From an uncultured Candidatus Saccharibacteria bacterium (GTDB lineage: Bacteria; Patescibacteriota; Minisyncoccia; Phycocordibacterales; CAZPGN01): 64,000 bases of DNA. Each line of letters starts with the position of its first letter. Within the stretch, counting starts at the first letter, position 1. The notes beneath the pieces were generated by a model. It searched no databases. It had not been told where the DNA came from and worked only from the letters and a program-made list of their open reading frames with translations. Positions 11,532-50,128 of the stretch are shown piece by piece. The stretch spans positions 72,932 through 136,931 of the forward strand of contig CAZPGN010000001.1 in NCBI GenBank assembly GCA_964586635.1. Direction: 5' to 3'. The position numbers were made by a program, and so were the translations under genes.

Positions 11532-11534
11532 GGG

Positions 11535-11777: not shown

Positions 11778-11813
11778 ACGCGAAAAAACATTACTTCATA
11801 ATACAATAATCGT

Positions 11814-15499: not shown

Positions 15500-15534
15500 G
15501 TCAAACTTCAGATATGCGGATACGTTGTGTCGGG

Positions 15535-16229: not shown

Positions 16230-16276
16230 AGATATGCCCCGCCTGCGCTCCACGCACGCGGGGCATCACATTTTTG

Positions 16277-17726: not shown

Positions 17727-17821
17727 AGGTGATAATCATTAATATACACACCCTGGCTCGACAAGCCTTCTGTGAAAGTATACCCCCAAATGCGTATAAT
17801 CTGTAATTGCATTCGCGTTCG

Positions 17822-18205: not shown

Positions 18206-18235
18206 TATCTGCGTGGAATATCGTACTTTTCGTAT

Positions 18236-18562
18236 TTATCCAAACACCAAAACCTTTTCCGAACTCTCAACCATTTTGAGTAAATCGGACATTGTGGAAA
18301 TGGGGCATACTTTGCTTTCGCTCTTGCCTCGCACCTTTAGACAACTTTCACATGCGTAGATTTTACCTTTTAGCTCTTTGAACATTGCCACTTTTGCCGA
18401 AATATCGAAATCCTTGCTGTCCTGGATAGAGTCGAGTTCCGACCCCTCGCTCATCAAAAATACTTCAACCGCATGAGCGGCTTTAAGAGAGGTGATTCCG
18501 AAGCGAAATGCATTCCAAACATGTTCGGGATTATTTGATTGCAAAATGATACCGATCTTCAT
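18236..18562 (-). CDS. DsrE/DsrF-like family protein
   Basis: 108 aa. MKIGIILQSNNPEHVWNAFRFG…KIYACESC matches the DsrE/DsrF-like (YchN fold) pattern with conserved Cys. Confidence 0.55.
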   Translation of the reverse strand: MKIGIILQSNNPEHVWNAFRFGITSLKAAHAVEVFLMSEGSELDSIQDSKDFDISAKVAMFKELKGKIYACESCLKVRGKSESKVCPISTMSDLLKMVESSEKVLVFG

Positions 18563-18586
18563 AAGAATACCCTAACAAATTCATTG

Positions 18587-18657
18587 CTGCCGGGCTAGGA
18601 ATCGAACCTAGATTAAGGGCTCCAAAGACCCCTGTCCTACCGTTAGACGACCCGGCA
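18587..18657 (-). tRNA. tRNA-Gln (anticodon TTG)
   Basis: Hand-folded cloverleaf on the minus strand: TGCCGGG/CCCGGCA acceptor (U1-A72 as in bacterial tRNA-Gln), D arm GTCT…GGAC, anticodon loop CTTTGGA, T arm CTAGG-TTCGATT-CCTAG, discriminator G. Confidence 0.8.
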
Positions 18658-18694
18658 ATTCATATGGGATAGTATAACAAAATCCAGATACTTG

Positions 18695-19732: not shown

Positions 19733-19743
19733 AGAGTGGTTGG

Positions 19744-34892: not shown

Positions 34893-34987
34893 CGGGATTC
34901 TCTCCTTACAGGAGCAGTACCCCGATTGGTTTTTTTTCTTCGTCTACGGACTCGAAAAAATACTCAATCGGGCTTCGAATCCCTCAC

Positions 34988-35006
34988 GGAGTGCCCCCGG
35001 CACTCC
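34988..35006. other. perfect 8-bp stem / 3-nt loop hairpin (GGAGTGCC-CCC-GGCACTCC) inside an unassigned 140-nt region between tRNA-Tyr and the REP copy
   Basis: Direct reading. The adjacent near-palindrome GGGCTTCGAATCCC (34968..34981) is T-arm-like but does not complete a cloverleaf. Confidence 0.5.
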
Positions 35007-35035
35007 TCCTACGCAAAACGCCATTCTGTCGTTTA

Positions 35036-35119
35036 TGCGTAGGGAGGGATTCGAACCCCCGAAGCCGCTAGGGCGACTGGTCTACAGCCAGTTGCGATTG
35101 ACCACTCCGCCACCTACGC
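35036..35119 (-). tRNA. tRNA-Tyr (anticodon GTA), type II long variable arm
   Basis: On the minus strand: acceptor GCGTAGG/CCTACGC, anticodon arm ACTGG-CTGTAGA-CCAGT, variable hairpin CGCCCTAGCGGC, T arm GGGGG-TTCGAAT-CCCTC, discriminator A. No CCA encoded. Confidence 0.85.
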
Positions 35120-35162
35120 ATGCAGGGAGCAGTATAACATCGATTTGCAGTTCAAATCAAAA

Positions 35163-37829
35163 TTAAGAACGGGAGGATGCCACCTGATGAGATACTGTCC
35201 GCCGCGATGATTTCGGTGATACTGCGATGGCAAGGTCATTGTCTTTTACTTCAACGAGGATATTCGCCTGTTCCGGCGCTGTTTTTGCGACGAGCATCTC
35301 GGCAAGCGGGTTCAGGATGCGACTCTGGATAAGACGACGAATCGGCCGCGCGCCGTATTGCGCCGAGTAGCCCTCGCGGGCGATCCATTCGAGGGCGGAC
35401 GGCATCACCGTGAGCGAAATTTCTTTTGTGCGCAATCGCTTCGCGACTTCCGCGATCTGTATCTCAACGATCGTCTTGATGATATCTCGGCCGAGCATAT
35501 TGAAAACGACTATCTCGTCGAGGCGGTTCAAAAATTCTGGTCGGAAATGGTTCTTCAGACTGTCGGTTATCTTTTCGCGTATCGCATCTTGCGTGTCATC
35601 ACTGCCCGAATCGAACCCGATTTTTTGCATTTTATTGAAGTGTTCGGAGCCGATGTTTGAAGTGAGTATAATGACGGCATTCTTAAAATTGACAACTCGA
35701 CCCTTTGAATCTGTCAATCGCCCGTTATCAAGCACTTGCAGAAGAATGTTGAACACTTCAGGATGCGCCTTCTCTATTTCGTCAAAAAGAATAATGGAGT
35801 AGGGGCGATGACGCACCGATTCGGTCAACGAACCACTCTCGTCGTATCCCACATAACCAGGAGGAGAACCGATGAGTTTCGAAATGGCATGCCGCTCCAT
35901 ATATTCCGACATATCTACGCGGATAATTGCTTTTTCGTCGTTGAACATGAATTCGGCGAGCGCGCGGGCAAGTTCTGTTTTGCCTACGCCAGTGGGGCCC
36001 AAGAACATAAACGAGCCGATTGGACGATCCGGATCTGAAATGCCCGCGCGTGAACGCTTCACAGCGTCCGATATCTTCTTGATAGCCTCATCTTGTCCAA
36101 CTACCCTCGAACGGAGCGTGTCCTCCATGCGCGATAGCTTTTGCGATTCTTCCTCGATCATTCGCGCGACCGGTATACGAGTCCAACGCGAAACAACCCC
36201 AGCAATGTCCTCTTCGGAAACTTCCTCACGAAGCACTTGTCGAGAGCGTTGGAGTTTACGCAGGCGATCTTGCACGCCCGTAAGCTCGCGTTCTTTTTCA
36301 GGAATCTTTCCGTAGCGGATTTCCGCGGCGCGCGAAAGGTCAGCATGCATTTCGGCATTCTCGGCATCAAGGCGCAACTCTTCAAGAGATTGTTTTAGCG
36401 CGCGCATATCGACAATGCTGTCGCGCTCATTTTTCCATTTAAGTTCCAGCTCGCGGGTTTTTTCGCGAAGTTCCGCAACCTCTTTTTCTATCGCTTTGAG
36501 GCGCGTACTAGCACGGCGCGATTTTGTTTCGTTCTTTAGGGCCTCCTTTTCTATCTCGAGACGGCGAATCTGACGATCGGTATTTTCAAGGAGCGCAGGC
36601 TTGTTCTCAAGCTGAAGCCGGAGTGCAGAGGCCGCCTCATCCACAAGATCTATCGCCTTATCTGGAAGAAAACGATCCGTAATATAGCGACTTGCGAGTG
36701 CGACCGCTGATACGATGGCGTCGTCAGTGATGCGAACACCGTGATGCAATTCGTATTTTTCTTTGAGACCTCGCAGAATGGCGACGGCATCATCTGTAGA
36801 AGGCTCGCCGATATACACCGGCTGAAATCGGCGCGTGAGCGCGGGGTCTCGCTCGATATATTTCTGATATTCCTTGAGTGTGGTCGCGCCGATAACGCGG
36901 AGTTCGCCCCGTGCGAGTGCCGGTTTCAACATATTCGATGCGTCTATAGAGCCTTCAGCGGCGCCCGCCCCAACGAGCGTGTGCGCCTCATCGATGAAAA
37001 GAATGATCGTGCCTGCCGCGCGTTCTATCTCTTTGAGTACATTTTTCAGTCGCTCTTCGAATTCTCCGCGGTATTTTGTGCCAGCAACAAGGAGGCCAAG
37101 ATCAAGCGACACGATTTCTTTGCCGCGAAGAGATTCAGGTGCATCACCCTTCGCTATGGCATTCGCCAGGCCCTCCGCTACGGCGGTCTTCCCAGTACCC
37201 GCTTCACCGATGAGTATCGGATTGTTTTTCGTGCGCCGCGAAAGTATCTGCATGATACGGCGTATCTCTTCATCTCGACCGATGACAGGATCGAGTTTGT
37301 CGGCCGCCGCAAGATGAGTCAAATTGCGACCATACTTCTCAAGCGCACGGAATTTTTTGGTTGTAGTAGTTTCAGTAATGTTGCCACTCTTTATCTCCTG
37401 CAGAACTCGGACGACATTGTCACGCGTGATACGAAAACGAGTCAAGAAATCGCGAGCAGGACTCGGCACTTCGACAAGCGCAACGAACAGGTGCTCCGTT
37501 GATACGAAATCGTCCTTGAAGGCGGCTGCAACTTTTGCGGAAGCATCGAGTACGCGAACAAGTTCTGGGGTCAAATATATCTGATATGATGGAGAAATAA
37601 TCGAACCTCCATCGGGACTCTCTACGCTCTCCGCCAAGTGATCGAGCAAGAGCGGAGTATCGATCTCAAGCTTGTCGAGTATCGACATGATGATACTCTC
37701 CTCCTGCAAAAGGAGCGCGAGTAGCAGGTGTACGGGGCTTACCTGATTCTGTCCTCGCTCAATAATGAGCTCGTGCGCCTTGCGTATCGCTTCCCGCGCT
37801 TTTGAAGTGAAGTTACTAAATGGCATCAT
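35163..37829 (-). CDS. clpB: ATP-dependent chaperone ClpB
   Basis: 888 aa. Two AAA+ modules: [15 protein letters not shown] (Walker A of NBD1) and [17 protein letters not shown] (Walker A of NBD2). A long coiled-coil M-domain lies between them. An N-terminal Clp_N repeat is present. Confidence 0.9.
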
Positions 37830-37901
37830 AGATTTTTACAACTTCATTGTCCCTTCATTGTACAAAGTCCTAGAAGCATTGTCAATACCGCCCATGCCGC
37901 G

Positions 37902-38819
37902 TCATGGCTTCTTTGAGGGTGCCTGTCGAGGACTCTCCAGGCTAGCGAGCGCCGCCGCAATGTCTTCCCGAGCGATGACACTCGACTTTCCACCAAACAT
38001 TCCAACAAGTCTTCCCGCGGTGGACACGACCGGCGCGCCAACAGAGCCTACCGATGCTGCAAAATTCGTTTTAATCACCGGCGACGACGAAGCGGCGCCT
38101 GTTTTGAGCCCGGATATAAAGCCTATTGAGACGGTCCCGAGGTCGCCATCATATCCCATCGTGATAATAGTCTGCCCGAGCGTACTGACGGATGACCCCA
38201 GAGAAACCGGGGTAAAGGTGCGTTTACTACGCGGTTCGGATGAGACGGAGAGTACAATGATTCCACGAATGGCATCGATTGCGCGAAGTTCTGCTGGAAG
38301 GGTCGTACCATCGAGAAGAGTAATCGAAATGGATTTAGATTCTCTGATAGCTCCAACATTCGCCGTCACAATGGTCCCATCCTCGCTCACAAAAAAACCG
38401 ACTCCGTCGAACGCAGCAGACGCAATCGGCCTCACAATGGTTCCGATACCAGCAAGCGAGTCCGTATTCTGTAAGGGCGATGTGGTCCCAGCTTGAGGTC
38501 CTATTGACTGTCCGCTTGTTGCAATATGGGACATTGGGGATTCGACTGCCGCATTGATGCGCACAATTGCGGGCGCGAGCGCCTGCACTGCCTCGACGAT
38601 CCGCGCCTCGGCAGGTATCTCCGTGAGAGTATTCACAACCTTTGTCTCTCCCGCAACTACTGTCTCGATCGTTCGTTCGACTACGCGATTAATCGTTTGT
38701 GTAATATCCTTCGGTGCCTGGTCGAGCAAGGCTACGGTAACGATACCCGTAGCAATTGATGTGACGAAACTACAAAAGAGCGCGAGGAGTATTAGTTGCT
38801 GTTTCGAGAGATTCTCCAT
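37902..38819 (-). CDS. membrane-anchored hypothetical protein with trypsin-like (S1) fold features, possibly catalytically degenerate
   Basis: N-terminal TM (LILLALFCSFVTSIATGIVTVALL), then a Gly/Ser/Val-rich beta-rich region. GSVGAPVV occupies the position of the GDSGGP motif, so the catalytic Ser is not clearly conserved. Confidence 0.35.
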   Translation of the reverse strand: MENLSKQQLILLALFCSFVTSIATGIVTVALLDQAPKDITQTINRVVERTIETVVAGETKVVNTLTEIPAEARIVEAVQALAPAIVRINAAVESPMSHIATSGQSIGPQAGTTSPLQNTDSLAGIGTIVRPIASAAFDGVGFFVSEDGTIVTANVGAIRESKSISITLLDGTTLPAELRAIDAIRGIIVLSVSSEPRSKRTFTPVSLGSSVSTLGQTIITMGYDGDLGTVSIGFISGLKTGAASSSPVIKTNFAASVGSVGAPVVSTAGRLVGMFGGKSSVIAREDIAAALASLESPRQAPSKKP

Positions 38820-38865
38820 GTCATAATAATATCATGATGGCATGCAAAGAGCGCAAATGACCGTG

Positions 38866-40020
38866 TTAATTATCCGATTGTGCGCGCAATTTCTCTATGA
38901 TCCGAGGCAAAATAGCAATAACCTCATCAATGTCTTGTTCTGTCGAGTGAACTCCGAGCGTAAAACGAACAGCGCTTGTGGTATATGTTTTGTCCTTACC
39001 AAGCGCTCTGACGGCATAGGAGCCGCCTTCAGCGCCACTTTCACAGGCGCCGCCGGAAGAACTAGAAATCCCCATCATATCAAGCTCTATTACAGCCTGC
39101 TCGTTCAATGTTCTTTGCAACGAGAAATTCACATTATTCGCGAGACGCTCTGTTGCCGAGCCATTTAGTTCCGCGTCTGGCACATGGTCAAGTATTCCGG
39201 CTATCAAGCGATCGCGCAATAAGGTAAGTCGCTTCCGCTCATCGTCTCGGCGTGTTTGAACAAGCTGAAGTGCATAGGCAAATCCTACGATTCCTGGCAC
39301 ATTTTCCGTACCGCTTCGCATACCTCGCTCCTGTCCCCCGCCGTAGACAAGCGGAGAAAGCAACACTCCTTTTTTCATATAGAGCGCGCCCACTCCTTTC
39401 GGCCCATATACTTTTGCGCTGTTTATCGTCATGAGATCAACTCCAAGCGCCTGTGGCATGATCGAGAGCGTCGTCGGTGATTGGCATGCATCCGTATGGA
39501 AATAGGGGTAGGCTGAATTACCGCGATGCTCCCTTATGACTCGAGATATATTCGCAAGCGGCTGTATTGTTCCGATTTCGTTATGCGAGTGTATTAGCGA
39601 CACGAGAACCGTGTCCTCCCGAAGCGCCGCGCGAACCGCATCGGGAGAAATTTCCCCCGCCTGGTTCGGAGAAAGTTTTGTTACCGCAAACCCGCGTTTT
39701 TCAAGCAACGGTAGCGTGTTCGTTATTGAGGGATGCTCAAATGCTGACACAATGATATGCCCCTGCTTGGGTAAGCCCTGCATCACAATATTATTCGCCT
39801 CCGTCGCGCTGGCAGTAAAAATAATTTCGGAGGATGTGCATCCCAGCACACGAGCGACCTCGACATGCGCGTACTCCACGCCCTCACGAGCCGCTAGTCC
39901 ATCCGAGTGTATAGAGTGCGGATTCGCGGCTCGCTCGATCCAATAGGGCGCCATAGCTTCAAGCACGCGAGGATCAACGGGCGTCGCCGCCGCATAGTCC
40001 ATATAGATTCGTTTACGCAT
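38866..40020 (-). CDS. cysteine desulfurase (class V aminotransferase, IscS/NifS family)
   Basis: MDYAAATPVDPRVLEAM; the PLP-lysine region SAKVYGPKGVGALY (SxHK-like); the C-terminal GGACESG active-site Cys loop. Confidence 0.8.
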   Translation of the reverse strand: MRKRIYMDYAAATPVDPRVLEAMAPYWIERAANPHSIHSDGLAAREGVEYAHVEVARVLGCTSSEIIFTASATEANNIVMQGLPKQGHIIVSAFEHPSITNTLPLLEKRGFAVTKLSPNQAGEISPDAVRAALREDTVLVSLIHSHNEIGTIQPLANISRVIREHRGNSAYPYFHTDACQSPTTLSIMPQALGVDLMTINSAKVYGPKGVGALYMKKGVLLSPLVYGGGQERGMRSGTENVPGIVGFAYALQLVQTRRDDERKRLTLLRDRLIAGILDHVPDAELNGSATERLANNVNFSLQRTLNEQAVIELDMMGISSSSGGACESGAEGGSYAVRALGKDKTYTTSAVRFTLGVHSTEQDIDEVIAILPRIIEKLRAQSDN

Positions 40021-40087
40021 ACAATATCGTCAGTGTACCGCGAGAATTTATTTTTGCCAAAATGATAAATTTACTGTATAGTGCTGT

Positions 40088-41590
40088 TTGCGTTTCCCTA
40101 TGAAAACCGTAAGCTCCAGAAACAGAATAGCGCGCCCACCCATTGTTGTTGTCGTCGGTCATATCGACCACGGCAAATCAAGCTTGCTTGATTATATTCG
40201 TAAAACGAATGTTGTCGCAGGAGAAACGGGCGGTATCACGCAACATATTTCGGCATACGAGGCAATGCACAATGGCAGAAAAATTACGTTCCTCGACACG
40301 CCCGGTCACGAAGCTTTTGCTGAAATGCGACTTCGTGGGGCGCACGCGGCAGATATCGCGATCCTTGTGATTGGGGCAGATGATGGCGTAGAGGTTCAGA
40401 CCACGGAGGCCCTCCGCGCGATACAGGAGGCGGGAATTCCTTATGTTGTGGCTATTAATAAGATGGACCTGCCAACCGCCGAACCCGAGCGAGTAAAACA
40501 ACAACTCGCAGAGCAAGGCGTGTTCCTCGAAGGATACGGTGGTACCATCTCAAACACCGCCATTTCTGCGAAAACAGGCGCGGGCGTCTCTGAACTCCTT
40601 GATCTTGTTCTTCTTGCAACCGACATAGAGGATTTGACAGCCGAAGCATCCACTCCCGCAGGTGGCCATGTCATAGAATCCCACATGGACCCCAAACGCG
40701 GCGCAACCGCAACACTCATAATAACGAACGGCATAATAACGAAAAAAGGTTTTGTGGTGGCGGGTGACGCGTATGCGCCGATCAGAATACTGGAGGATTT
40801 CAAGCATGCGCCGATTACTTCGGCAACTGTTTCCGCACCGATCGTGATAGCGGGATTCAACCATGTTCCACCAGTCGGTACGACCTGGAGCATCGTCACT
40901 GACAAAAAGGAAGCGGAGCGTCTGTCGAAAGTGCGCGCGGCTGTTGCGGCACATGATAAGACCCAACCGGAGACAGAGATAGTCATCCCTATTCTCGTTA
41001 AAGCGGACACGCGAGGAACACTCGAGGCGGTCCTCGGCGAACTGCGCCGCGCCGCAACCGAAAAAGCGCGCTTCGAGGTCATTGCGAGCGGAGTCGGGGC
41101 TATAACGGAAAATGATATTAACACAATCGCAGCCGGAAAGGACCCGCTTGTAGTCGGCTTTAGCGTAAAGGTCGAGCAGGGAGCTCAGGATATCTCGACT
41201 CGACTCGGGATAACGCCCGTCTCTTTCTCCCTCATTTACGAATTGACGAAATATGTCCGTTCGGAAATAGAGCGAAGGTCGCCGAAAATCTCCACAGAAA
41301 TAGTACTCGGCAAAGGACGGATATTGAAAACATTTGACCGCTCAAAGGAAAAACAGATCGTCGGAGGAACTGTGCTCTCTGGCGCGATATTGCAAAACAA
41401 AACCGTCAAAATCATCCGCAATGGCGGAGAAATCGGCGGCGGTTCAATTTCAGAACTGCAACAGTCAAGGGTTAAGGTTGATCGAGTTGAAGAAGGCAGT
41501 CAATTTGGGGCTCAAATCTCATCTCGCATAACTATCGCCGCGGGAGATATCATAGAAGCGATAGACGTTGTTGCGGCAGGGCATGAGTAG
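40088..41590 (+). CDS. infB: translation initiation factor IF-2 (short form lacking N-terminal extension)
   Basis: VVVGHIDHGKSSLLD (G1), DTPGHEAF (G3) and NKMD (G4) motifs. C-terminal beta-barrel domains. 500 aa. Confidence 0.85.
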   Translation: MRFPMKTVSSRNRIARPPIVVVVGHIDHGKSSLLDYIRKTNVVAGETGGITQHISAYEAMHNGRKITFLDTPGHEAFAEMRLRGAHAADIAILVIGADDGVEVQTTEALRAIQEAGIPYVVAINKMDLPTAEPERVKQQLAEQGVFLEGYGGTISNTAISAKTGAGVSELLDLVLLATDIEDLTAEASTPAGGHVIESHMDPKRGATATLIITNGIITKKGFVVAGDAYAPIRILEDFKHAPITSATVSAPIVIAGFNHVPPVGTTWSIVTDKKEAERLSKVRAAVAAHDKTQPETEIVIPILVKADTRGTLEAVLGELRRAATEKARFEVIASGVGAITENDINTIAAGKDPLVVGFSVKVEQGAQDISTRLGITPVSFSLIYELTKYVRSEIERRSPKISTEIVLGKGRILKTFDRSKEKQIVGGTVLSGAILQNKTVKIIRNGGEIGGGSISELQQSRVKVDRVEEGSQFGAQISSRITIAAGDIIEAIDVVAAGHE

Positions 41591-41927
41591 GCACCGGCAA
41601 CATCGTCTCGTTGAGATACTAAAGCGCACTGCGGCGGAATACATTCGCGATGTCTCATCAAGCGAATCGCTCATAACGATAACCGATGCCTTATTGAGCA
41701 AGGACGGAAAAGTGATTACCTTGCTCATAAATGTCATTCCCGAGGACAAGGAATATTCAGCGCTTGTATTTATGAATCGCAAACGACATGAGCTGTTTAA
41801 ACATCTAAAGCAACACAGTAATCTCGCGTTCATTCCAAAAATCATTTTCGAGGTCAACGAGGGAGAGAAACGCCGCAGACGCATTGATGAACTTATCGCA
41901 AGAGATAAAGGCGTGCAGAAATCATAA
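41568..41927 (+). CDS. rbfA: ribosome-binding factor A
   Basis: RQHRLVEILKRTAAEYI…SLITITDALLSKDGKVITLLINV is the RbfA KH-like pattern. It lies immediately downstream of infB, as in the canonical operon. Confidence 0.75.
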   Translation: MLRQGMSRHRQHRLVEILKRTAAEYIRDVSSSESLITITDALLSKDGKVITLLINVIPEDKEYSALVFMNRKRHELFKHLKQHSNLAFIPKIIFEVNEGEKRRRRIDELIARDKGVQKS

Positions 41928-41952
41928 AAGCTCTGGAATACTGGCCGCCGTT

Positions 41953-41961
41953 TGATATAAT
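41953..41961 (+). promoter_or_regulatory. extended -10 promoter element (TGaTATAAT) upstream of tRNA-Cys
   Basis: TTTGATATAAT at 41951..41961. tRNA-Cys begins at 41973, about 12 nt downstream. Confidence 0.35.
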
Positions 41962-41972
41962 CTGTATATATT

Positions 41973-42044
41973 GACCACGTGGCGAAGTGGTAACGCAGCG
42001 GTCTGCAAAACCGCAACGCGCGGGTTCGATTCCCGCCGTGGTCT
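41973..42044 (+). tRNA. tRNA-Cys (anticodon GCA)
   Basis: Acceptor GACCACG/CGTGGTC, discriminator U (typical Cys identity element). Anticodon arm GCGGT-CTGCAAA-ACCGC. T arm GCGGG-TTCGATT-CCCGC. Confidence 0.85.
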
Positions 42045-42338
42045 TAAGGCGGGAATCGAAGCCGACCCGAGAAAGCTAAACTGCTTTAGGTTTCTCGGGC
42101 GGCAGGCTCCGAAGGAGACTGTCTCGATGCGCCAAGAGGCGCCAGAGACAGTCGGGTGAGGAGGATTCCCGCCGTGGTCTTAAGGCGGGAATCGAAGCCG
42201 ACCCGAGAAAGCTAAACTGCTTTAGGTTTCTCGGGCGGCAGGCTCCGAAGGAGACTGTCTCGATGCGCCAAGAGGCGCCAGAGACAGTCGGGTGAGGAGG
42301 ATTCCCGCCGTGGTCTTAAGGCGGGAATCGAAGCCGAC
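42045..42338 (+). repeat. tandem direct repeat: 136-nt unit x2 plus a 22-nt third partial copy, beginning right after the tRNA-Cys discriminator; each unit ends with a 17-nt copy of the tRNA-Cys 3-prime end (GATTCCCGCCGTGGTCT)
   Basis: Units 42045..42180 and 42181..42316 are identical by eye; partial copy 42317..42338. Each unit has a 10-bp closing stem (GGCGGGAATC…GATTCCCGCC) and long internal hairpins (GCCGACCCGAGAAA…TTTCTCGGGCGGC; GACTGTCTCGATGCGCC…GGCGCCAGAGACAGTC). Confidence 0.9.
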
Positions 42339-42357
42339 TAGTGATTGTATATATTTT

Positions 42358-42439
42358 GCCCGGGTGGTGTAATTGGTAGCCACGATCGACTTAAGATCGG
42401 TTGCCGTAAGGCATGTGGGTTCGAGTCCCACCCCGGGCA
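42358..42439 (+). tRNA. tRNA-Leu (anticodon TAA), type II
   Basis: Acceptor GCCCGGG/CCCGGGC, anticodon arm ATCGA-CTTAAGA-TCGGT, variable hairpin TGCCGTAAGGCA, T arm GTGGG-TTCGAGT-CCCAC, discriminator A. Confidence 0.8.
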
Positions 42440-42450
42440 TTTTTGATGGG

Positions 42451-42473
42451 ATGAAGGGGTCAGGAGCCTTCAT
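42451..42473 (+). repeat. REP-like hairpin repeat copy (ATGAAGGGGTCAGGAGCCTTCAT) followed by TTTTG; terminator-like, after the tRNA-Leu(TAA)
   Basis: Plus-orientation copy of the 23-mer; …CCTTCATTTTGTC. Confidence 0.8.
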
Positions 42474-42628
42474 TTTGTCTGCCTATCGCGGTTGGAATAA
42501 ATGAAATAATCAGGGCACTTGTCAAGTACCTGAAGTTTGCTGATGAAAAGAAGCAGCCTTTTACGAAATACTTCGGATGCTATGAAAGTTTGAGAGACGA
42601 TGATTCGTGTGTTATTTTGTATTGACAT

Positions 42629-42701
42629 CCCCCTATAGCTCAATTGGTAGAGCAACGGACTCTTAATCCGCAGGTTGTAGGTTCGATTCCTACTGGGGGG
42701 A
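42629..42701 (+). tRNA. tRNA-Lys (anticodon CTT)
   Basis: D arm GCTC-AATTGGTA-GAGC, anticodon arm ACGGA-CTCTTAA-TCCGC (A27/C43 mismatch), T arm GTAGG-TTCGATT-CCTAC. Acceptor CCCCCTA/TGGGGGG with an unusual C1-G72. Discriminator A. Confidence 0.7.
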
Positions 42702-42716
42702 CACTTTATTAGTGGA

Positions 42717-42745
42717 TTGTCAATCTCGTCTGCGACATATATACT
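42717..42745 (+). promoter_or_regulatory. sigma70-like promoter for tRNA-Leu(TAG): -35 TTGTCA, 17-nt spacer, -10 TATACT
   Basis: TTGTCA at 42717..42722, TATACT at 42740..42745. tRNA start is at 42759. Confidence 0.4.
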
Positions 42746-42758
42746 GAAGCAAGTGTGC

Positions 42759-42843
42759 GGGCGAGTGGCGAAATTGGCAGACGCGCCAGCCTTAGGAGCT
42801 GGTGGAGAAATCCGTGGGAGTTCAACTCTCCCCTCGCCCACCA
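42759..42843 (+). tRNA. tRNA-Leu (anticodon TAG), type II, CCA encoded
   Basis: Acceptor GGGCGAG/CTCGCCC, D arm GCG…CGC, anticodon arm CCAGC-CTTAGGA-GCTGG, variable hairpin TGGAGAAATCCG, T arm GGGAG-TTCAACT-CTCCC, discriminator A, CCA. Confidence 0.85.
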
Positions 42844-42867
42844 AACCAAAGTTGGATGACTCATATC

Positions 42868-42905
42868 CAAAAAGCCCCGCCGCCGAAGGGCGCGGGGCTT
42901 TTTGG
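42868..42905. terminator. bidirectional Rho-independent terminator (GC hairpin flanked by an A-run and a T-run) between the tRNA cluster (+) and the giant surface-protein gene (-)
   Basis: CCAAAAAGCCCCGCCGCCGAAGGGCGCGGGGCTTTTTGGTTTTG: stem GCCCCGC(c)GCC / GGC GCGGGGC with loop GAAG. A and T tracts lie on both sides. Confidence 0.7.
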
Positions 42906-42919
42906 TTTTGCACAAGGCT

Positions 42920-45900
42920 CTATTGACCGAGTCTCACCTGCACCTGCTTTTGCAGATTCTCGATAAGTTTCTGGAGATCCTTCACTTGCTTCTCTAGTTC
43001 TGCCTCTGTAGATACGGACGAAGCTGTGGGTGCTCCAAGTTCTCCAAGTTTGGCGCGGGTCATGGGACCCACGAAGCCGTAGCCAGGATCGCTCGGCTTG
43101 GCTAGGTTGTATTTCTCTTGGAACTTACCGATGGCTTTCTGTGTAAGTGTTCCGAGGAACTCCGTCTCGCTGCCGGGTGATCCTGGACCAGTGTTTGCGA
43201 TCTTCGTGTCGGGATCGTTGTTCAAGAGCTGTTGGAGGCGCTTGACATCTTCGCCGCGGGTGCCGATGTCAAGCGAACGGGTGAAGGCCGCAGAGACCGA
43301 TGCCGGAGTTGCTGGTACTGCCGGGGAAACTCCGACAGAGGATACCTCCTGGAGCTTGGCGCGGGTCTTAGGACCGAGAACGCCGAAGCCAGTGGTTTCC
43401 TCGCTACCAGAAGAGATGATGCCGTGCTTCTTCTGGAATTTTTGGAGTGCTAATTTCGTGAGCAGGCCGAAGAAGTCCGTTTCGTTGTCGGGTGACCCCG
43501 GACCAGTATCCGATATTTTCGTATCGGGATCGCTGTTTAGAATCTGCTGGAGGCGCTTGACATCATCGCTTCTTGATCCCGTTTTAAGCACGCGGGTGAA
43601 GACTGGGGAAACCGATATTGCGGTAATGGAAGGGGTTGCAGGAGGGTTCGGTAGGGTTGCCGCAGATACAGATGCGCCCTGCGATGCGGATGCTGGAGCG
43701 GAAATTGCGGGAGTCTTCGACAGAACATGGTCGGAAACAGAACCGCCAAGGTATGACGGCGCCGAACCCCCGCCGCCGCCGCCCCCTCCGCCGCCAAGCA
43801 CATTGACTTTCGCGGAAACGGCACTCGAGGCCGCCGATTCTACAGAACCGCTCTCCTTTGAGGCCGACACTTTGTAGTAGTATGTGGTGCCGTTAGTTAC
43901 CGCTGTATCCGTATAGTTCGTAACATTGCCTGGGACATTCAGAAGCGGGAACGAGCCCGTATCGCTCGTATCGCGATATATGAAGTATCCGGTCGAGTCG
44001 TCAGATGAATTCCACGAGAGTGTAATGGTATTACTGCCCGGATTCCCTGCGGTCGCGGTCAAGTTCGCGGGCGCGGCGGGAGCGTCCGAGTTCGTCGCAG
44101 ACGAGAGCGCATAGAGCGAGAAGTGCGACCCTATCGAAGTAAATGCGACCGTTGAGACATTCGAAAGATTAGATGCCGGAGACGTAATGACATTTCCGCT
44201 CGAATCTTTGTAGGTCAAAACCGTCGAGAGTGATTCCCATTCTTTTTTGTCTTCGCTGTATGATACGACCTTCAATTTGTCTACTTCTGCCGAGGTATCC
44301 ACGTCGGAGAGCGCAAGTTCGGCTTTCGTATAAGTAAGCTCAATACTCGCTTTCTTGCCAGTCTGAAGATTTTTGACTTGAGAACTGCCAGAATATGCGT
44401 TAATGTCCTTCGCCTTTGAGGCCACTATGTTCACACTCACAGTGTTCGGGAAGTTGCTGGTTTCCTTGACGGTAAGATACGAGTTGCTGCCGGCCGAACC
44501 TAGTGTATTGGCATCTAGATCAACCTTGACCTTCGTTGCCGTATCGGAGATGCTTCCAGCGCTCGTGTCGGTAAATGTATTCGAGGTCATGAGGGTACTG
44601 GAAATCGAAGCCGTCGTTGTGAGCGCAACAGTTATAGACGAGGCAGAATTGGCGCCGATGGATATTGGGTTTGCCGCGGCCGCCGCTTCGACATATCCCT
44701 CCGCCGCCGCGAATACGCGCCATGTGCCTTCGCCAACGCTCAAGCGATAGGTGCCGTCAGTATCGGTCTTGGTCACAGCCTGACCGCCGCCGACGCGGAC
44801 AGCGCGCACGAAGGCATTGGCCGACAGAGAACCGCCCGCCGTTACCGTGCCGGAGATCGAGCGGGATGCGCTGGTCAGCACGAAATTTCTAGTGGTATTG
44901 CCTGAAATGGTTATCGAGGTCGGCGTGTCAATATAGCCCGGTTTAGAAACGATAACCTTGTAGGTTCCGTCGACAAGCGAGAGCCGATACGCTCCGGAGG
45001 TAGTCGCTTGCGTACCCGCGAATACGCCATTCGACTCGTTGACGAACGAAATCCATGCATCTGTAAGCTCGTTCCCTGATGTCGCTGCGGTATGATAGAC
45101 GGTGCCGGATACGACACTCAAGTTCGCACTGGCAGTATTAACCACGATTTTTATCGTTTCAGCGCCATTCACTTGCAAAACGCCGGAAAGTACCAGTGTA
45201 TTCGTACCATCATCGCTCGCCACAGAAATGTTCGACGACGGAACACCCTGAATGAAAGCTCGAATCGTAGTTGAGGCGCCATTCGCTATCTGAAGCGATG
45301 TCGAAGACGCGCTCGTTATTTCAACATGGTTCCCAAGCTGTGTACTCGTATCGAAGAGATCAATGAACGCCTTGGGAACTTCGAGCAGATTTCCGTTCGA
45401 GTCTTTTATGTTTATTGTGATAGTCCGCCTTGGCGCAACGCGGATGTTCTGCGTAGTGGAAGCTGTCAAGTCTATCGCGCCGATCGCCGCGCCGCTATTG
45501 CCAAGCGCGGCGATGCGCCCGTAACCTGGCTTGAATATGTCCGCGATCGAATATCCGGAACCAGAACGAACGCGCACCGAATATGCCCCATCGGAGCCAG
45601 AAACGGCCTCATTCGTGCCTGATGACCCGGAAACGCGAATGATGGCTCCCTCTATGCCCTCACCGGCAGTGAACGCGGCGTCGGAATTGCTGTCTTCGTA
45701 GATGTTTCCAGAAAGAATACTGAAGTTAAGCGTGGAGGCGGGTGCAAAATCAATGTTCTCCTGATTCGCCCCCGCGACAGTAACAGTCTGTTCAGTCATT
45801 TGCCCGAATCCTGGAATGAATACATTTACTTTCCATGCGCCGCTGTCAACATAAAGCGTGTATGTTCCGGCCGAAGAATCTGTGAATGAGTCTGCATGAC

Positions 45901-48900
45901 CAGGCCCATCTGTGCGGTAGGCAAACACAGGAGCGTTGCCGACCGCATTCGTGCCGTCCGTTACCCGGCCCGTAATGGTGTATCCAGGTTTTGTCATTTT
46001 AAGCACGAACGGATTTGCGCCGCTTACGCCAGTGGATGCCGAAGTTGAGCCGTCAATGAAGGCATTGCCGGACGAGTCTATGACAACGGAGACCTCACGC
46101 GACTGTCCGACTCCCGGAGCGAACGCACCGACATTGTACGAACCGGAAACAACGCGAATAGAAAATGTGCCATCGATTGCCGTTTGTCCGTGACTACCCA
46201 ACCCAAGGGAGGGCGAGTATGCGTACACGCCCGCATCGGAGACGGTGTTGCCGCTTCCGTCCTTAAGAATGCCTGTTATCGTCTTGTCCGCCACAGAAAT
46301 GGCAAATGTGTATTCTGTAACACGAGACCCGCCAACCGTTGCAATGCATGCAGTCGGACATCCCTTCACTTCGACCTCGATCGGTTTCGGCATTGACCAG
46401 GTGGTGCTAGGCGGCCCAGACATAAAGCCAGTATCGCCCTTCGGCATTGCCGGACCGAAACCGATACCCCAGAACCCGTTCACTTGCGGGAGCGGCATTG
46501 TAGTAACTTTTGTTGCGGAAAGAGCGGCTGTTCCTGGAGTAATCGTGCGCACCACGAATTCACCTGGGCCCCCCGCAAATACATCGAGCTGTTCAGTCGC
46601 TGTGAAAGTATTTAAGGCGGCTGTCATCTTGATATCTATGTTTACAGCAGATGAAGTCGCCGTAAGCGCGAAGTCTCTCGTGATAACGCTTGTCGAGGTT
46701 GCGAGCACCGGCGTCGGGTTGGGTTTGCCGAAGAAACCTGTGGTGGTGCCGGTAGGACTCACTATGGCATTAGTCGACAGCATGTATTCACCACCGCCAC
46801 CAAAGTTGTTCGACAAGAACTCGGTATTGATAGGAATATCGGTAAATTGGTACACGCCGCTCGCGTCAGTTGTACCGATTACTTGACCGATTTGAGGTGA
46901 AAACAGATTTATGTCAACACCTTGGAGGTTCGCGCCATTCCCAGATACTCTCCCACGAATGGTTGTCGTCGCTCCAGAAGAACCTATCCGTCCGTTTATA
47001 TAGATCGGGTTTGCGCTAAAGGTCTCAAGGAGTACTCCAGATGCGTTGCGTGATTTAATGTCTATCGAATAACCAGGGCTGTCGAATCCTTTCGGAATGG
47101 ATGGATTTTTTAGATCTACAACGCCGAACCGTAGGAAATCGTGCGCATCGCCCGATTCGCTGCGCGTCGCGGCATTAAGTGTGAGGGTTACGGTCTTCGC
47201 CGCAGCGTCGCGCGCGATAGCCGCGATGCCAACAGTCCCGGTGCCAGGCCCGTTGATGTCCTTATTTTGCTCATTCAGATATGGGTTGCGGGCTGATGAT
47301 GTCGCCGCACAGCAGATACCGAAATCTGCCGCGGAGGGGAAGGTGAGGACTATGGTGCCGTTTGCGGGTATTTGCCTTGAGATTGGAAGCTCGAAGATAT
47401 AGGTAGTCGAGGCGGAAACGAAATTGGACAAAGTTTGAATGTTCACCGGAGGAACGAAACCGATGCCGGAAGCGGAGAAATCTTTGTGCTCACCGAAGAC
47501 GCTTCCAGAAAAGGTGCCAGGCCCAAGAAGACCGCCACCCGAAGAAGAAAAGCCTGCGACAGTTCCAGTAAAGGTGCCCTCGGTCGTCATCGCATTACCG
47601 CTCATATCCTTGATATTGTTCGCGGTAACTGTGAAGGAAGTGCCGGCTGGAAGCTTTACGCCAGAGATTTGCGCAGTGCGCGTAGTCGAGTCATAGGTGA
47701 CAGAGTGCCCTGCCAGCGCGGAAAGCGTAATGCCTGAACCCGCAGTAACAGAGTAATTCGCAAGCGTCTTCGCATCACCCGAATTGACAGCCTCATTAAA
47801 GGAAATCGCTATGGAGAAATCGTTCGCGTTGGCAAAGAGAATTGAGGGCGGCTGTGTATCGGAATTCGTAGCTTCGACCGTCCAGTCCCGCGTTACCGTC
47901 CCCGCAAGAGGCGTCCCTGAAGTGTTCTTCAGTCCTCCCGCGCCTCCGACGAGCGTCAAACGCAACTGGGAGTTCGAAGGAAGCACATTGTTCGGAACAA
48001 AGTGGCCCTCTTGCGTAACGGGATTGTAATAGACAGTCCCTGGAATATTGGCGCCGCCAACGATGCTCATACTTACCGAGCCGGAGGTTGCCGTTGTCGG
48101 ATCTATTGTGTCATCAAAGACGAAGAGAAAATCATTCATGTTCGCCGCAATTGGTGCGCTTGCACTCGGTAGAACGGATTGCAGAATCGGCGCCGACGAA
48201 TCGGTAGAGCCCGAGGTCGTGAATTTCGAGATATATGCCGTTTGTGCGGCGACGCCGTTTGTATTCCGTACGCCGACCCCGACAGTGAGCGTATAAGTGC
48301 GATTCGCTCCGAGGGATGCAGGCATCATCGTAAGAAGATTCTTGCCGGTCGAAGTGCTCATAACGAAATTGGATAGTACCACCGCCGCGCCAAGGTCATT
48401 CACGAGCGTGATATTCGCGTTCGTGAGCGTGCTGACATTCATATTTGCCTGACTGAATTCTACTGACAACACGGAGAGATTCGTCGGCACATTCTGCGCA
48501 CTGTTGAATGGACTGGCGCCAAGCACCTGCGGGGGCACGAGATTCGTGGAGGTCTGGGTACTTCCGCCGGTCGTAAAGGTGATGGAATACGGCTGGCTTC
48601 CTGCCGTGAATCGGTTCTGGTCGAGTGGATTGCCGGAGATGTCGCGGATGGTGCTAGTGGCAATAAATGCGTAAATCGTACTGGGCGCAAGATTTGCAGA
48701 AAGGATGCATTTTGCCGATGGCTCAAATGCGCTCGGAAACGGATTATACTGTACGCTCCCGCAGAGGTTCGGGTTGGTCAGACTGCTTGCGTTGCGGAGA
48801 GTGACTGTCGTTGTTGCGGTGGCAGAGATAATAGTTCCGGTCGCGATCGTTTTGTTGAAATTGAACCCGATGTACTGCATATCGATTGGTACATTCGTGT

Positions 48901-50128
48901 TCTGGTCGGACGGGAACGACGCCGAAACCATCGGACTTTCGATGTCGAGAAAGCCGCCGCCGAAGGAGAACTCTTTTGGACTCATGCTGTTTTGCGGATA
49001 GACGCCGGCACTCGTTTGCAGAACAAAGTCGGCGCTATTGTCGCCAGTGTCGCCGCTATTGCCGCGAGTGCTTTCAAAACCTCCTTGACTCATAGAGGCG
49101 GCCGAGGCAGTCGAGGTAGATTTGCGCTCGTAACTATTGTCTACGGCGAGATCGGCGAGACGGGTACCTTCTGCGTTCCCCGCCGGCTGTGCCCCCCATG
49201 CGACTCGGTCAATAGATGTCGTCGTCGCGGACGATGTGGCAATACCAAGCGCGCCGTTTGCAATAAGCGTATTGCCGGATAGCGTCGAATACGCGGCGTC
49301 AAGAGCTGTTCCGGAAGAGGTGTAGTTGGTTTGTGAGCCTATAAGGAAAAAGCCATGCTTAGGTATTACGGTGCGGTAGTAGGTAAGAGTTTTCGAGCTC
49401 GCGATTCCGTCCGCATCATAGAGATGAGGGACCAATCCAGAACCCTGCAGATTAAACGCAAACTCGGAAGGGTTGTACAGCTCAAAGAATTCATCGCCCG
49501 CATTACCAGTCGCCCCGAGTCGAAACTCGCTTATCTTAATAGGCACGGTTTGCTCGAGAAGGATAGCGCGACTGCCAGTGAACTGCGTACCAATGGAACC
49601 TCCCGAAGTTGTAATCCAATTTGGCGATGTGGTTGCGTAAAATTGGTGGCCGTTCGTGAGACCAGCCGTAGATGTCGCGAGCGCGACTACAAAAAATTCC
49701 GTGGAGATAGACCCGACCGCGCCGTTGCCCGTGTCGACCGTAATAGTCTGCTCGGTGCTTGTTGCGGGGTCTATGACCATGTTGGCCGCGGTATTAAGAA
49801 GCGTGTCGGAATCGGGTTGGAAACCGAGATTCGCACCGGATTCTCTATAAAGCTGAAGTTTCCAGATCTCGCCATTCGTCAGTTTTGCGACATTCATCTG
49901 CGGAGTCGAAGTCGCCCGAATGGAAACTTTGACATTGGTGAGCGTGGCGCTTCCCGACGATTGAAGAAGACGAAACTGCAAGAGCGGTATGTACGCGCCG
50001 CCTCCAGCTCGCTGATTTTCAAAAAGAACATCGATGGGCGGAGCATTTTCGATAATGGCCGCTCTGGCAACACCCGGCACTGTAGATGCGACTGCGAATA
50101 AGACAAGAGCGATTGCTCGTAACCTCAT
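42920..50128 (-). CDS. giant secreted cell-surface protein (2402 aa): signal peptide, long array of beta-sandwich (Ig-like / CarboxypepD_reg-like) repeats, poly-Gly linker, two C-terminal peptidoglycan-binding (PG_binding_1-like) domains and a terminal coiled coil
   Basis: N-terminus MRLRAIALVLFAVASTVPGVARA. Recurrent SGTVT…G…TDGTYRL-type repeats. A GGGGGGGGGG run. Two copies of LKTGSRSDDVKRLQQ(I/L)LN.DPDTKI…TGPGSP…TDF(F/L)G.LT..A(L/I).KFQ.K. The C-terminus is EKQVKDLQKLIENLQKQVQ. Confidence 0.85.
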   Translation of the reverse strand: MRLRAIALVLFAVASTVPGVARAAIIENAPPIDVLFENQRAGGGAYIPLLQFRLLQSSGSATLTNVKVSIRATSTPQMNVAKLTNGEIWKLQLYRESGANLGFQPDSDTLLNTAANMVIDPATSTEQTITVDTGNGAVGSISTEFFVVALATSTAGLTNGHQFYATTSPNWITTSGGSIGTQFTGSRAILLEQTVPIKISEFRLGATGNAGDEFFELYNPSEFAFNLQGSGLVPHLYDADGIASSKTLTYYRTVIPKHGFFLIGSQTNYTSSGTALDAAYSTLSGNTLIANGALGIATSSATTTSIDRVAWGAQPAGNAEGTRLADLAVDNSYERKSTSTASAASMSQGGFESTRGNSGDTGDNSADFVLQTSAGVYPQNSMSPKEFSFGGGFLDIESPMVSASFPSDQNTNVPIDMQYIGFNFNKTIATGTIISATATTTVTLRNASSLTNPNLCGSVQYNPFPSAFEPSAKCILSANLAPSTIYAFIATSTIRDISGNPLDQNRFTAGSQPYSITFTTGGSTQTSTNLVPPQVLGASPFNSAQNVPTNLSVLSVEFSQANMNVSTLTNANITLVNDLGAAVVLSNFVMSTSTGKNLLTMMPASLGANRTYTLTVGVGVRNTNGVAAQTAYISKFTTSGSTDSSAPILQSVLPSASAPIAANMNDFLFVFDDTIDPTTATSGSVSMSIVGGANIPGTVYYNPVTQEGHFVPNNVLPSNSQLRLTLVGGAGGLKNTSGTPLAGTVTRDWTVEATNSDTQPPSILFANANDFSIAISFNEAVNSGDAKTLANYSVTAGSGITLSALAGHSVTYDSTTRTAQISGVKLPAGTSFTVTANNIKDMSGNAMTTEGTFTGTVAGFSSSGGGLLGPGTFSGSVFGEHKDFSASGIGFVPPVNIQTLSNFVSASTTYIFELPISRQIPANGTIVLTFPSAADFGICCAATSSARNPYLNEQNKDINGPGTGTVGIAAIARDAAAKTVTLTLNAATRSESGDAHDFLRFGVVDLKNPSIPKGFDSPGYSIDIKSRNASGVLLETFSANPIYINGRIGSSGATTTIRGRVSGNGANLQGVDINLFSPQIGQVIGTTDASGVYQFTDIPINTEFLSNNFGGGGEYMLSTNAIVSPTGTTTGFFGKPNPTPVLATSTSVITRDFALTATSSAVNIDIKMTAALNTFTATEQLDVFAGGPGEFVVRTITPGTAALSATKVTTMPLPQVNGFWGIGFGPAMPKGDTGFMSGPPSTTWSMPKPIEVEVKGCPTACIATVGGSRVTEYTFAISVADKTITGILKDGSGNTVSDAGVYAYSPSLGLGSHGQTAIDGTFSIRVVSGSYNVGAFAPGVGQSREVSVVIDSSGNAFIDGSTSASTGVSGANPFVLKMTKPGYTITGRVTDGTNAVGNAPVFAYRTDGPGHADSFTDSSAGTYTLYVDSGAWKVNVFIPGFGQMTEQTVTVAGANQENIDFAPASTLNFSILSGNIYEDSNSDAAFTAGEGIEGAIIRVSGSSGTNEAVSGSDGAYSVRVRSGSGYSIADIFKPGYGRIAALGNSGAAIGAIDLTASTTQNIRVAPRRTITINIKDSNGNLLEVPKAFIDLFDTSTQLGNHVEITSASSTSLQIANGASTTIRAFIQGVPSSNISVASDDGTNTLVLSGVLQVNGAETIKIVVNTASANLSVVSGTVYHTAATSGNELTDAWISFVNESNGVFAGTQATTSGAYRLSLVDGTYKVIVSKPGYIDTPTSITISGNTTRNFVLTSASRSISGTVTAGGSLSANAFVRAVRVGGGQAVTKTDTDGTYRLSVGEGTWRVFAAAEGYVEAAAAANPISIGANSASSITVALTTTASISSTLMTSNTFTDTSAGSISDTATKVKVDLDANTLGSAGSNSYLTVKETSNFPNTVSVNIVASKAKDINAYSGSSQVKNLQTGKKASIELTYTKAELALSDVDTSAEVDKLKVVSYSEDKKEWESLSTVLTYKDSSGNVITSPASNLSNVSTVAFTSIGSHFSLYALSSATNSDAPAAPANLTATAGNPGSNTITLSWNSSDDSTGYFIYRDTSDTGSFPLLNVPGNVTNYTDTAVTNGTTYYYKVSASKESGSVESAASSAVSAKVNVLGGGGGGGGGGSAPSYLGGSVSDHVLSKTPAISAPASASQGASVSAATLPNPPATPSITAISVSPVFTRVLKTGSRSDDVKRLQQILNSDPDTKISDTGPGSPDNETDFFGLLTKLALQKFQKKHGIISSGSEETTGFGVLGPKTRAKLQEVSSVGVSPAVPATPASVSAAFTRSLDIGTRGEDVKRLQQLLNNDPDTKIANTGPGSPGSETEFLGTLTQKAIGKFQEKYNLAKPSDPGYGFVGPMTRAKLGELGAPTASSVSTEAELEKQVKDLQKLIENLQKQVQVRLGQ

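Follow-up and report, generated by a model that had tools for sequence, protein, structure and literature searches.

What is a strongly folded repeat doing at the end of a tRNA gene, where each of its units closes with a copy of the 3' terminus of that same tRNA? The question is raised by a 64,000-nt stretch of DNA from an uncultured bacterium of the candidate phyla radiation (CPR; contig CAZPGN010000001.1, positions 72,932 to 136,931; hereafter the window), in which a tandem array of 136-nt units is fused to the gene for tRNA-Cys(GCA). The original prediction, made before any database search, offered two answers: (i) serial site-specific integration of a very small element, or (ii) tandem amplification of a tRNA-linked small RNA gene. 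We identified a previously undescribed family of folded elements which follow CPR tRNA genes, copy the 3' ends of these tRNAs and are built like RtT of Escherichia coli. On balance, the repeat is probably a tandemly amplified member of such structured RNA modules, which trail tRNA genes in Paceibacteria-type CPR bacteria.

Anatomy of the array

Tandem Repeats Finder identified a single tandem array at 42028..42338 (period 136, 2.3 copies, 100% matches, no indels), and an independent repeat search gave the same result. The initial description (2.2 repeats, with no differences visible by eye) holds. The tRNA-Cys(GCA) gene lacks an encoded CCA (ARAGORN; 69.2 bits with the Rfam tRNA model), and the array starts at its G57, within the T-loop. 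As predicted, the tRNA 3' end is copied at the close of each 136-nt repeat, and the 17-mer GATTCCCGCCGTGGTCT is present at 42028-42044 (within tRNA-Cys), 42164-42180 and 42300-42316. In the proposed order X-Y-X-Y-X-Y', the repeated block X is 39 nt long and not 17, because the array closes with a truncated third unit of 22 nt. The features of the locus are as follows.

41953..41972, + strand: promoter-like stretch 5' of tRNA-Cys, read from the sequence
41953-41961, + strand: predicted extended -10 element TGATATAAT, likewise read from the sequence
41963-41972, + strand: motif TGTATATATT, with a second occurrence directly 5' of tRNA-Leu
41973..42044, + strand: tRNA-Cys(GCA); its last 17 nt (42028-42044, T-loop G57 to discriminator U73) are the first direct-repeat copy ('dir0')
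42045..42180, + strand: unit 1 (136 nt), composed of TAA, inverted copy, hairpin H1, AGG, hairpin H2 and direct copy
42048-42060, + strand: inverted copy of unit 1, GGCGGGAATCGAA (13 nt)
42061-42103, + strand: H1 of unit 1 (43 nt, loop CTGC)
42107-42163, + strand: H2 of unit 1 (57 nt), with a 6x6 purine-rich internal loop
42164-42180, + strand: direct copy of the tRNA-Cys 3' end in unit 1
42181..42316, + strand: unit 2, of the same sequence as unit 1, not present in contig L001 (see below)
42184-42196, 42197-42239, 42243-42299 and 42300-42316, + strand: inverted copy, H1, H2 and direct copy of unit 2
42317..42338, + strand: truncated third unit (22 nt), composed of TAA, the inverted copy (42320-42332) and 6 nt from the start of H1
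42346..42476, + strand: downstream boundary of the array (TGTATATATT motif, tRNA-Leu(UAA), terminator-like hairpin)
42346-42355, + strand: motif TGTATATATT before tRNA-Leu
42357-42440, + strand: tRNA-Leu(UAA)
42447-42476, + strand: terminator-like hairpin GATGAAGGGGTCAGGAGCCTTCATTTT

The inverted segment is the exact reverse complement (13/13) of the T-loop and T-stem 3' strand of tRNA-Cys, and the junction between the tRNA and the array forms a 13-10-13 palindrome. In the predicted fold, GGCGGGAATC pairs with GATTCCCGCC to form a 10-bp closing stem, which encloses H1 and H2 and gives the unit the shape of a Y (a three-way junction). The minimum free energy of this fold is -81.3 kcal/mol (z = -8.1), a stability reached by none of 200 shuffled sequences. 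The folding check suggested at the outset therefore supports the 10-bp stem and the two hairpins, with the correction that the inverted segment measures 13 nt.

No copy of the 136-nt unit was found in the window beyond the array. When compared with Rfam 15, the region 41900-42500 matched tRNA models only, even at E<=10. The original statement that the unit belongs to no known non-coding RNA family is thus correct for Rfam; what it did not mention is the precedent of RtT/tyrT, whose anatomy is alike.

A family of elements trailing CPR tRNA genes

Every tRNA gene in the window and in nine related (syntenic CPR) loci was searched, over 350 nt on each side, for a 12-nt reverse complement of its T-loop plus T-stem 3' strand. 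Among these 54 genes, 11 have an inverted copy of this sequence downstream that matches at 12/12 positions, and three more have one with a single mismatch, while no perfect copy was found upstream of any of the 54; about 0.001 matches would be expected by chance. Eight of the 11 copies lie 49-72 nt downstream of the tRNA, usually just past a terminator-like hairpin, and the remaining ones are at 4, 21 and 242 nt. The carriers are tRNA-Cys, tRNA-Tyr, tRNA-Trp, tRNA-Lys, tRNA-Leu(UAA) and tRNA-Leu(UAG), with tRNA-Gly in a degenerate form, and the inverted copies follow seven different T-loops (AATCGAA, AATTGAA, ATTTGAA, ACTCGAA, ATTCGAA, AGTCGAA and CTTGAA...).

As a rule, two hairpins and then a direct copy of the tRNA 3' terminus come after the inverted copy, and pairing of the two arms results in the Y-shaped fold. 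The modules have regular boundaries, with T54 as the invariable end of the inverted copy and position 57 or 58 as the start of the direct one. Complete members extend the inverted copy to the acceptor strand, in a contiguous stretch of 18-19 nt in the Lys-linked element of locus L156 and the Leu-linked element of L170, the former having no additional hairpin between the two parts. The inverted copy of the Cys, Tyr and Trp elements is split by such a hairpin (hairpin 0, loop CYGC). Both the 5' acceptor-strand copy and hairpin 0 are present in the window tRNA-Tyr element, in L157, and in the elements behind tRNA-Cys of L170, tRNA-Trp of L172 and tRNA-Tyr of L172 (E1). The window tRNA-Cys unit contains neither, and its H1 shares the CTGC loop; it has in common with the family the inverted copy (13/13), the direct copy (17/17), the closing helix (P1) and both hairpins. 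Further arrays, tandem or decayed, were found behind tRNA-Tyr of L172 (two units) and tRNA-Leu of L170 (partial repeats). The family is lineage-specific, since a relative (L173) carries no member.

The second member in the window, recognised from its sequence and in the census, follows tRNA-Tyr on the opposite strand.

34894..35120, - strand: tRNA-Tyr (35035-35120) with its element (34894-35014)
35008-35014, - strand: 5' acceptor-strand copy GCGTAGG
34988-35006, - strand: hairpin 0
34974-34985, - strand: perfect 12-nt inverted copy of the T-loop and T-stem 3' strand, GAGGGATTCGAA
34920-34973 and 34902-34914, - strand: H1 and H2
34894-34900, - strand: truncated direct copy GAATCCC
34867-34893, - strand: terminator hairpin after the element

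The last of these features belongs to a set of near-identical 23-27-nt hairpins, (G)ATGAAGGGGTCAGGAGCCTTCAT, which occur five times in both orientations (3026-3054, 34867-34893, 42447-42476, 60581-60607 and 60766-60792). At 34867-34893 and 42447-42476, past the tRNA-Tyr element and tRNA-Leu(UAA) respectively, a T-run comes next on the tRNA strand. The hairpin looks like a shared terminator or a module resembling repetitive extragenic palindromes (REP).

The same modules recur at the position of the window array in other genomes. The order IF-2, rbfA, tRNA-Cys, gap, tRNA-Leu(UAA) is kept in ten other loci (gap of 60 to 701 nt), in one of which (L169) tRNA-Cys is inverted on the opposite strand; a GTDB scan with IF-2 found the tRNA synteny kept in just two of 21 loci. 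The spacers of L155, L157, L170 and L172 contain an inverted copy of their own tRNA-Cys T-arm (CGGGAATTGAA, GGGAATCGAA or GAGAATCGAA) together with H1 and H2, and share the junction motif (A)G.CCG. A direct copy of the tRNA-Cys 3' end is complete in L155 (18/18), carries an inserted 20-nt palindrome in L157 (16/17) and is degenerate in L172; none was seen in the tRNA-Cys element of L170. Partial versions are kept in L169 and L156, the former having a direct copy (17/18), yet neither the inverted copy nor the hairpins. The strain variants of L155 (L159-L168) are uninformative on the element, which is identical in all of them, because their differences all fall outside it.

Across the relatives, this spacer contains alternately a structured element or a homing-endonuclease gene. 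Homologous HNH endonuclease genes occupy it in three lineages (L007, 2623-3099; L028, 8018-8512; L158, 4972-5448), and a LAGLIDADG gene is found there in L008 (5978-6640). Upstream of the HNH gene of L007 lies a 25-nt piece from the 5' end of another tRNA-Leu allele (2566-2590). In L157 a 48-nt sequence comprising the tRNA-Cys promoter and the first 18 nt of the gene is duplicated 118 nt upstream (4849-4897 versus 4967-5015). The palindrome inserted in L157 (20 nt, perfect, CTGCCTGCCGGCAGGCAG, approximately 5231-5250) is also present in L158 (minus strand, 3' of tRNA-Leu(UAG)), so that the same sequence interrupts the direct tRNA-Cys 3'-end copy in one locus and lies inside the Leu(UAG)-linked element in the other; it may be a tiny mobile palindrome.

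Three further observations concern the same region in other loci. The 170-nt Cys-Leu spacer of L154 (4536-4705) folds at -67 kcal/mol (z = -4.5) without tRNA-derived arms, and may represent a different RNA or a diverged member of the family. The Hainich groundwater variants L159-L163 are the same through tRNA-Leu(UAA) and diverge completely from position 3948 (its end), while L155 carries small open reading frames (ORFs) beyond this gene, including a recombinase zinc-ribbon fragment, which points to the integration of an island at the 3' end of tRNA-Leu. Finally, L169 contains repeated 5' fragments of tRNA-Lys (TCCGCCCATAGCTGTTTTGG...) and a run of N upstream of the intact tRNA-Lys gene (4240-4520), which is another tRNA-linked repeat disrupting assembly.

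Does the family act as RNA or merely as DNA? All complete members fold as P1 with H1 and H2, and these two hairpins are not derived from the tRNA: their architecture is conserved and their sequence is not. The tRNA strand was the more stable one in all eight elements tested, by 1.0 to 11.9 kcal/mol. The Leu-linked elements of L170 and L172 differ by 11 substitutions in 116 positions, six of which form three fully compensatory pair changes, while one converts C-G to U-G and four are unpaired; none is disruptive. Moreover, junction motifs are conserved within a subfamily (GAA(A)G.CGG, in the form GAAAG.CGGA; GAG..GGGGTCG; and TCGTGACC), and behind several members lies a T-run terminator of their own on the tRNA strand. 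The fold, the strand bias, the compensatory changes, the junction motifs and the terminators favour a functional RNA encoded on the tRNA strand, and the window's own unit may be credited with such a function by virtue of its membership in the family. The second of the two original proposals, a tandemly amplified tRNA-linked small RNA gene, is hence supported by the conserved Y fold, the compensatory changes, the strand bias and the anatomy shared with RtT.

The parallel with RtT is close. The repeats 3' of tyrT-tyrV, with a 178-bp unit in 3.14 copies, were reportedly described by Egan & Landy in 1978 and by Boesl & Kersten in 1991. In our direct analysis of the E. coli K-12 locus they had a period of 178 bp and 3.1 copies (95% identical), started in the T-loop of tRNA-Tyr and closed each unit with the last 19 nt of this tRNA. 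In the RF00391 consensus structure, the closing helix (GgGaaGGAU/AUCCuuCcC) pairs an inverted copy of the tRNA 3' part with a direct one, and the tail is ccaCCACCA; the annotated 3' end of rttR falls at the CCA copy. Both RtT and the window array are thus tandem units of fractional copy number, fused to a tRNA 3' end on the same strand and starting within the T-loop. In both, the tRNA terminus is copied at the end of every unit. Inside the unit lies an inverted copy of the T-stem 3' and acceptor region, which pairs with the direct copy and leaves the acceptor 3' strand as a tail.

The two systems also differ. RtT includes the CCA, whereas the CPR copies stop at the discriminator, as expected of CCA-less genes. 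The only known host of RtT is tRNA-Tyr, while the CPR elements follow at least six tRNA species, with arms matched to each; moreover, complete CPR members add the 5' acceptor-strand copy and hairpin 0. The units are 95% identical in E. coli, in contrast to 100% in the window. RF00391 (gathering score 45 bits) matched neither the window nor, at E<=10, the region 41900-42500; it was equally without a match at E<=1 in L155, L156, L157 and L170, four loci holding members, which matched only tRNA models of Rfam. The relation between the CPR family and RtT is therefore one of design rather than demonstrable homology. A mobilome study found the signal over rttR raised under stress, with an unknown mode of action (bioRxiv 10.1101/2024.07.17.603846). 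The literature searched contained no description of such tRNA-linked elements in Patescibacteria.

Each window unit also contains a GGAGG followed after 10 nt by GTG and a 13-codon ORF (MVLRRESKPTRES; 42159-42215, with the GTG at 42174, and again 42295-42351), which recalls the Tpr peptide encoded inside E. coli RtT. This ORF is probably coincidental, because it is buried in helices and is not conserved among the other family members; nor is any Tpr-like ORF conserved in the CPR family.

Other known systems resemble the elements in part. Plant mitochondrial t-elements, MALAT1/mascRNA and the modules of murine gammaherpesvirus 68 (MHV68) are tRNA-like processing signals at RNA ends (RNase P/RNase Z). 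They too have a helix that imitates the acceptor and T-stems and ends in a 3' tail of the discriminator type, and the CPR elements might be processed similarly; however, they mimic the general shape of a tRNA, are not copies of an adjoining one and lack an anti-T-loop segment. REP and REPIN sequences and miniature inverted-repeat transposable elements (MITEs) are likewise small, strongly structured and intergenic, with terminal inverted repeats, and often lie beside terminators. The terminal repeats of the CPR elements, in contrast, come from the local tRNA and have no family consensus, and the unit is not dispersed in the 64 kb.

Alternative explanations

Several observations weigh against the proposal of a tandemly amplified RNA module. 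The opposite strand of the window unit is nearly as stable (-76.1 kcal/mol), because all pairs of this unit are Watson-Crick; for this reason, and because it has no close relatives, selection on structure is evidenced for other members and not for the window unit. Recognition of its 3' ends by an RNase Z-type enzyme is less certain as well, since the acceptor copy and hairpin 0 are absent. In many members a terminator separates the tRNA from the element, so that co-transcription would need read-through. As a processing signal need not equal the local tRNA, some other force must keep the arms matched. The family as a whole could not be aligned with MAFFT and RNAalifold (three pairs were recovered), so that membership rests on modular criteria. 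Finally, with identical units and one assembly of 1.3 copies, the amplification might in part be explained by the assembly.

The last point leads to the most serious alternative, namely that the genome contains X-Y-X (1.3 copies) and that the assembler went round the repeat cycle twice, which would make the second full copy an artefact. We consider this unlikely, though a substantial concern. Contig L001 (JACOVY010000016.1 of GCA_016177055.1) is 100% identical to the window across 19.2 kb, save for exactly one unit fewer (1.3 copies). The locus was found in runs of the SRR121133xx/SRR121134xx series, and the Logan unitigs of five runs all break off on reaching the repeat or earlier; in one case the end coincides exactly with the k=31 branch point (42057). 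Moreover, the unit length of 136 nt is close to that of a short read, and units 1 and 2 are perfectly identical. On the other hand, collapse of a real tandem is at least as frequent an assembly error as expansion, and tandem or decayed arrays are also present in other family members and in E. coli. Because L001 has one unit fewer, the biological copy number is at least 1.3 and is not fixed by short-read assemblies. The copy-number check proposed originally thus gave 2.3 copies in one assembly and 1.3 in the other; the X-Y-X core and the family stand in either case.

A different possibility is that the elements are DNA-level by-products without RNA function. They might be repair scars at tRNA genes cut by homing endonucleases, formed by fold-back priming at a terminator hairpin or by template switching, with quasi-palindrome correction keeping the arms matched. 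Its attraction lies in the HNH and LAGLIDADG genes in the Cys-Leu spacer of L007, L028, L158 and L008, and in the other partial tRNA duplications nearby (the tRNA-Leu 5' fragment of L007 and the 48-nt duplication of L157). Furthermore, the inverted copy of the Lys-linked elements of L156 and L007 lies within a long quasi-palindrome centred on the terminator loop, the pairs of the window unit are all Watson-Crick, and tandem amplification driven by SegB has been documented at phage tRNA loci (PMC13096335). Such scars would nevertheless be hard to reconcile with hairpins which do not stem from the tRNA and yet conserve their architecture without conserving sequence. Nor would they be expected to show three compensatory changes and one to G-U with none disruptive, better folding of the tRNA strand in eight of eight elements, conserved junction motifs (GAA(A)G.CGG, GGGGTCG and TCGTGACC) and regular boundaries (T54; 57 or 58). 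We therefore regard an origin as functionless scars as rather improbable.

The genomic context bears on the remaining alternatives. The locus is chromosomal: clpB and genes for a trypsin-like protease, a class-V aminotransferase and a short IF-2 are followed by rbfA, tRNA-Cys and the array, and then by a tRNA cluster (tRNA-Leu(UAA), tRNA-Lys and tRNA-Leu(UAG)) and the gene of a 2402-aa surface protein. The database label on the window proteins is Candidatus Vogelbacteria (CPR/Patescibacteria lineage). The closest IF-2 in a search of 5.8 billion proteins was only 55% identical, and an RbfA homologue search returned RbfA itself and nothing else; the source bacterium thus has no close relatives. 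ORFs were annotated in the stretches 9000..20000 and 35163..50128, which contain no RAYT or transposase gene and a single recombinase (a 280-aa tyrosine recombinase, 11991..12833, about 29 kb from the array), in agreement with the sole recombinase originally placed some 30 kb away. This Xer-like gene, on the minus strand, forms the edge of a low-GC island (11991-16000; 35-39% GC versus about 50%) that carries a MazG-like gene and small ORFs without Pfam matches, and is probably a separate integrated element.

Direct repeats from the T-loop to the 3' end are the classical mark of integrase insertion into tRNA genes, and 16-20-bp repeats of this kind bound P4-type integrase islands. Under serial integration, a tyrosine integrase encoded elsewhere would have inserted a 136-bp non-autonomous element, whose att core is the tRNA-Cys 3' end, at least twice, leaving units that are scars bounded by attL and attR; the precise empty site would be tRNA-Cys joined directly to TAGTGATTG.... 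The array does carry 17-18-nt direct repeats of the tRNA 3' end from the T-loop, which flank the unit, and its 13-10-13 junction palindrome recalls a recombinase core site; a tyrosine recombinase is present at 11991..12833, and the Cys-Leu spacer is a hotspot of mobile DNA in relatives. However, duplication of an att site yields no inverted copy, yet one is present. The arms behind the Tyr, Trp, Lys, Leu and Gly tRNAs match each local tRNA, so that there is no constant, element-borne att core. The inverted copy lies at a variable distance from the tRNA end (30-57 nt in L155, L157 and L170), and the palindrome is therefore not a fixed core site. In addition, the sequence 5' of the direct copy is unlike the T-stem 5' strand expected in attR, the 119-nt 'island' is non-coding, without integrase or cargo, and has no further copy in the window, the sole recombinase is Xer-sized, 29 kb off and at the edge of an unrelated island, and the compensatory changes point to selection on folding. 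With arms specific to at least six tRNA species, an inverted copy and no associated integrase, the serial integration proposed originally has become very improbable.

The other candidates were rejected. A group I intron does not fit an uninterrupted tRNA-Cys, as such introns lie at position 35/36 of the anticodon loop in Patescibacteria tRNAs and match Rfam intron models (PMC13011429), and a T-loop intron or permuted tRNA is excluded by the complete upstream tRNA and the interrupted downstream copy in L157. A palindrome-associated element of IS200/IS605 (PATE), an IS110 bridge-RNA remnant, a casposon target-site duplication, a retron and a diversity-generating retroelement have no cognate gene nearby, and none accounts for a tRNA-derived repeat of 17-39 nt plus an inverted copy; a 5S-like Y-shaped RNA has no Rfam match. 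A dispersed MITE or REP-type repeat is opposed by the lack of another unit copy in the window and in viral contigs. Scans of the latter with three unit sub-sequences gave no match for two of them and five chance matches without extension for the third, and a phage BLAST of the region gave tRNA matches only. A metagenome scan for the palindrome GATTCCCGCC-N8-14-GGCGGGAATC gave at least 120 matches; these are generic GC-rich hairpins, since none overlaps a tRNA or holds the unit body.

Proposed expression and significance

If the repeat is a tandemly amplified RNA module, we infer the following course of transcription, processing and amplification. The array is probably co-transcribed with tRNA-Cys, because an extended -10 element is predicted at this gene, no terminator precedes the array and tRNA-Leu has its own TGTATATATT motif; the stretch 41953..41972 is called a putative promoter because it was not picked out by a consensus promoter scan. 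The tRNA-like 3' ends at 42180 and 42316 would be used by the tRNA 3'-maturation machinery in the same way as that at 42044. Cutting at the unit ends would release 136-nt RNAs, by analogy with rtT RNA from the E. coli tyrT transcript. Between the 39-nt repeats, unequal recombination or slippage during replication may shift the copy number. The arms might be kept matched by selection for pairing (with the tRNA itself), by template-switch conversion in quasi-palindromes, or by both; alternatively, the match might result from the manner in which the elements arise.

A bolder and rather doubtful extension is that the elements form a class of small RNAs widespread in Paceibacteria-type CPR bacteria. 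Each would derive from the 3' half of the tRNA gene before it and remain complementary to that half, with the inverted arm functioning as an anti-tRNA segment. The target of this arm could be the precursor, a 3' tRNA fragment or a tRNA with a damaged 3' end. By pairing with it, the arm might switch folding or processing, sponge up fragments or provide a template for repair; the direct copy would be its self-masking partner. E. coli RtT would then be an isolated relative of the same principle.

The results also have consequences for genome annotation, since short-read assemblies break where the elements occur at tRNA loci, and the partial tRNA copies in them may be taken for att sites of integrated elements. 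The tyrT repeats of E. coli and rtT RNA have been viewed as a curiosity since 1978. The same design has now been found in a distant, genome-reduced phylum, behind many tRNAs and with compensatory evolution, which provides many natural variants for study and suggests a general, overlooked route to RNAs built on tRNA genes.

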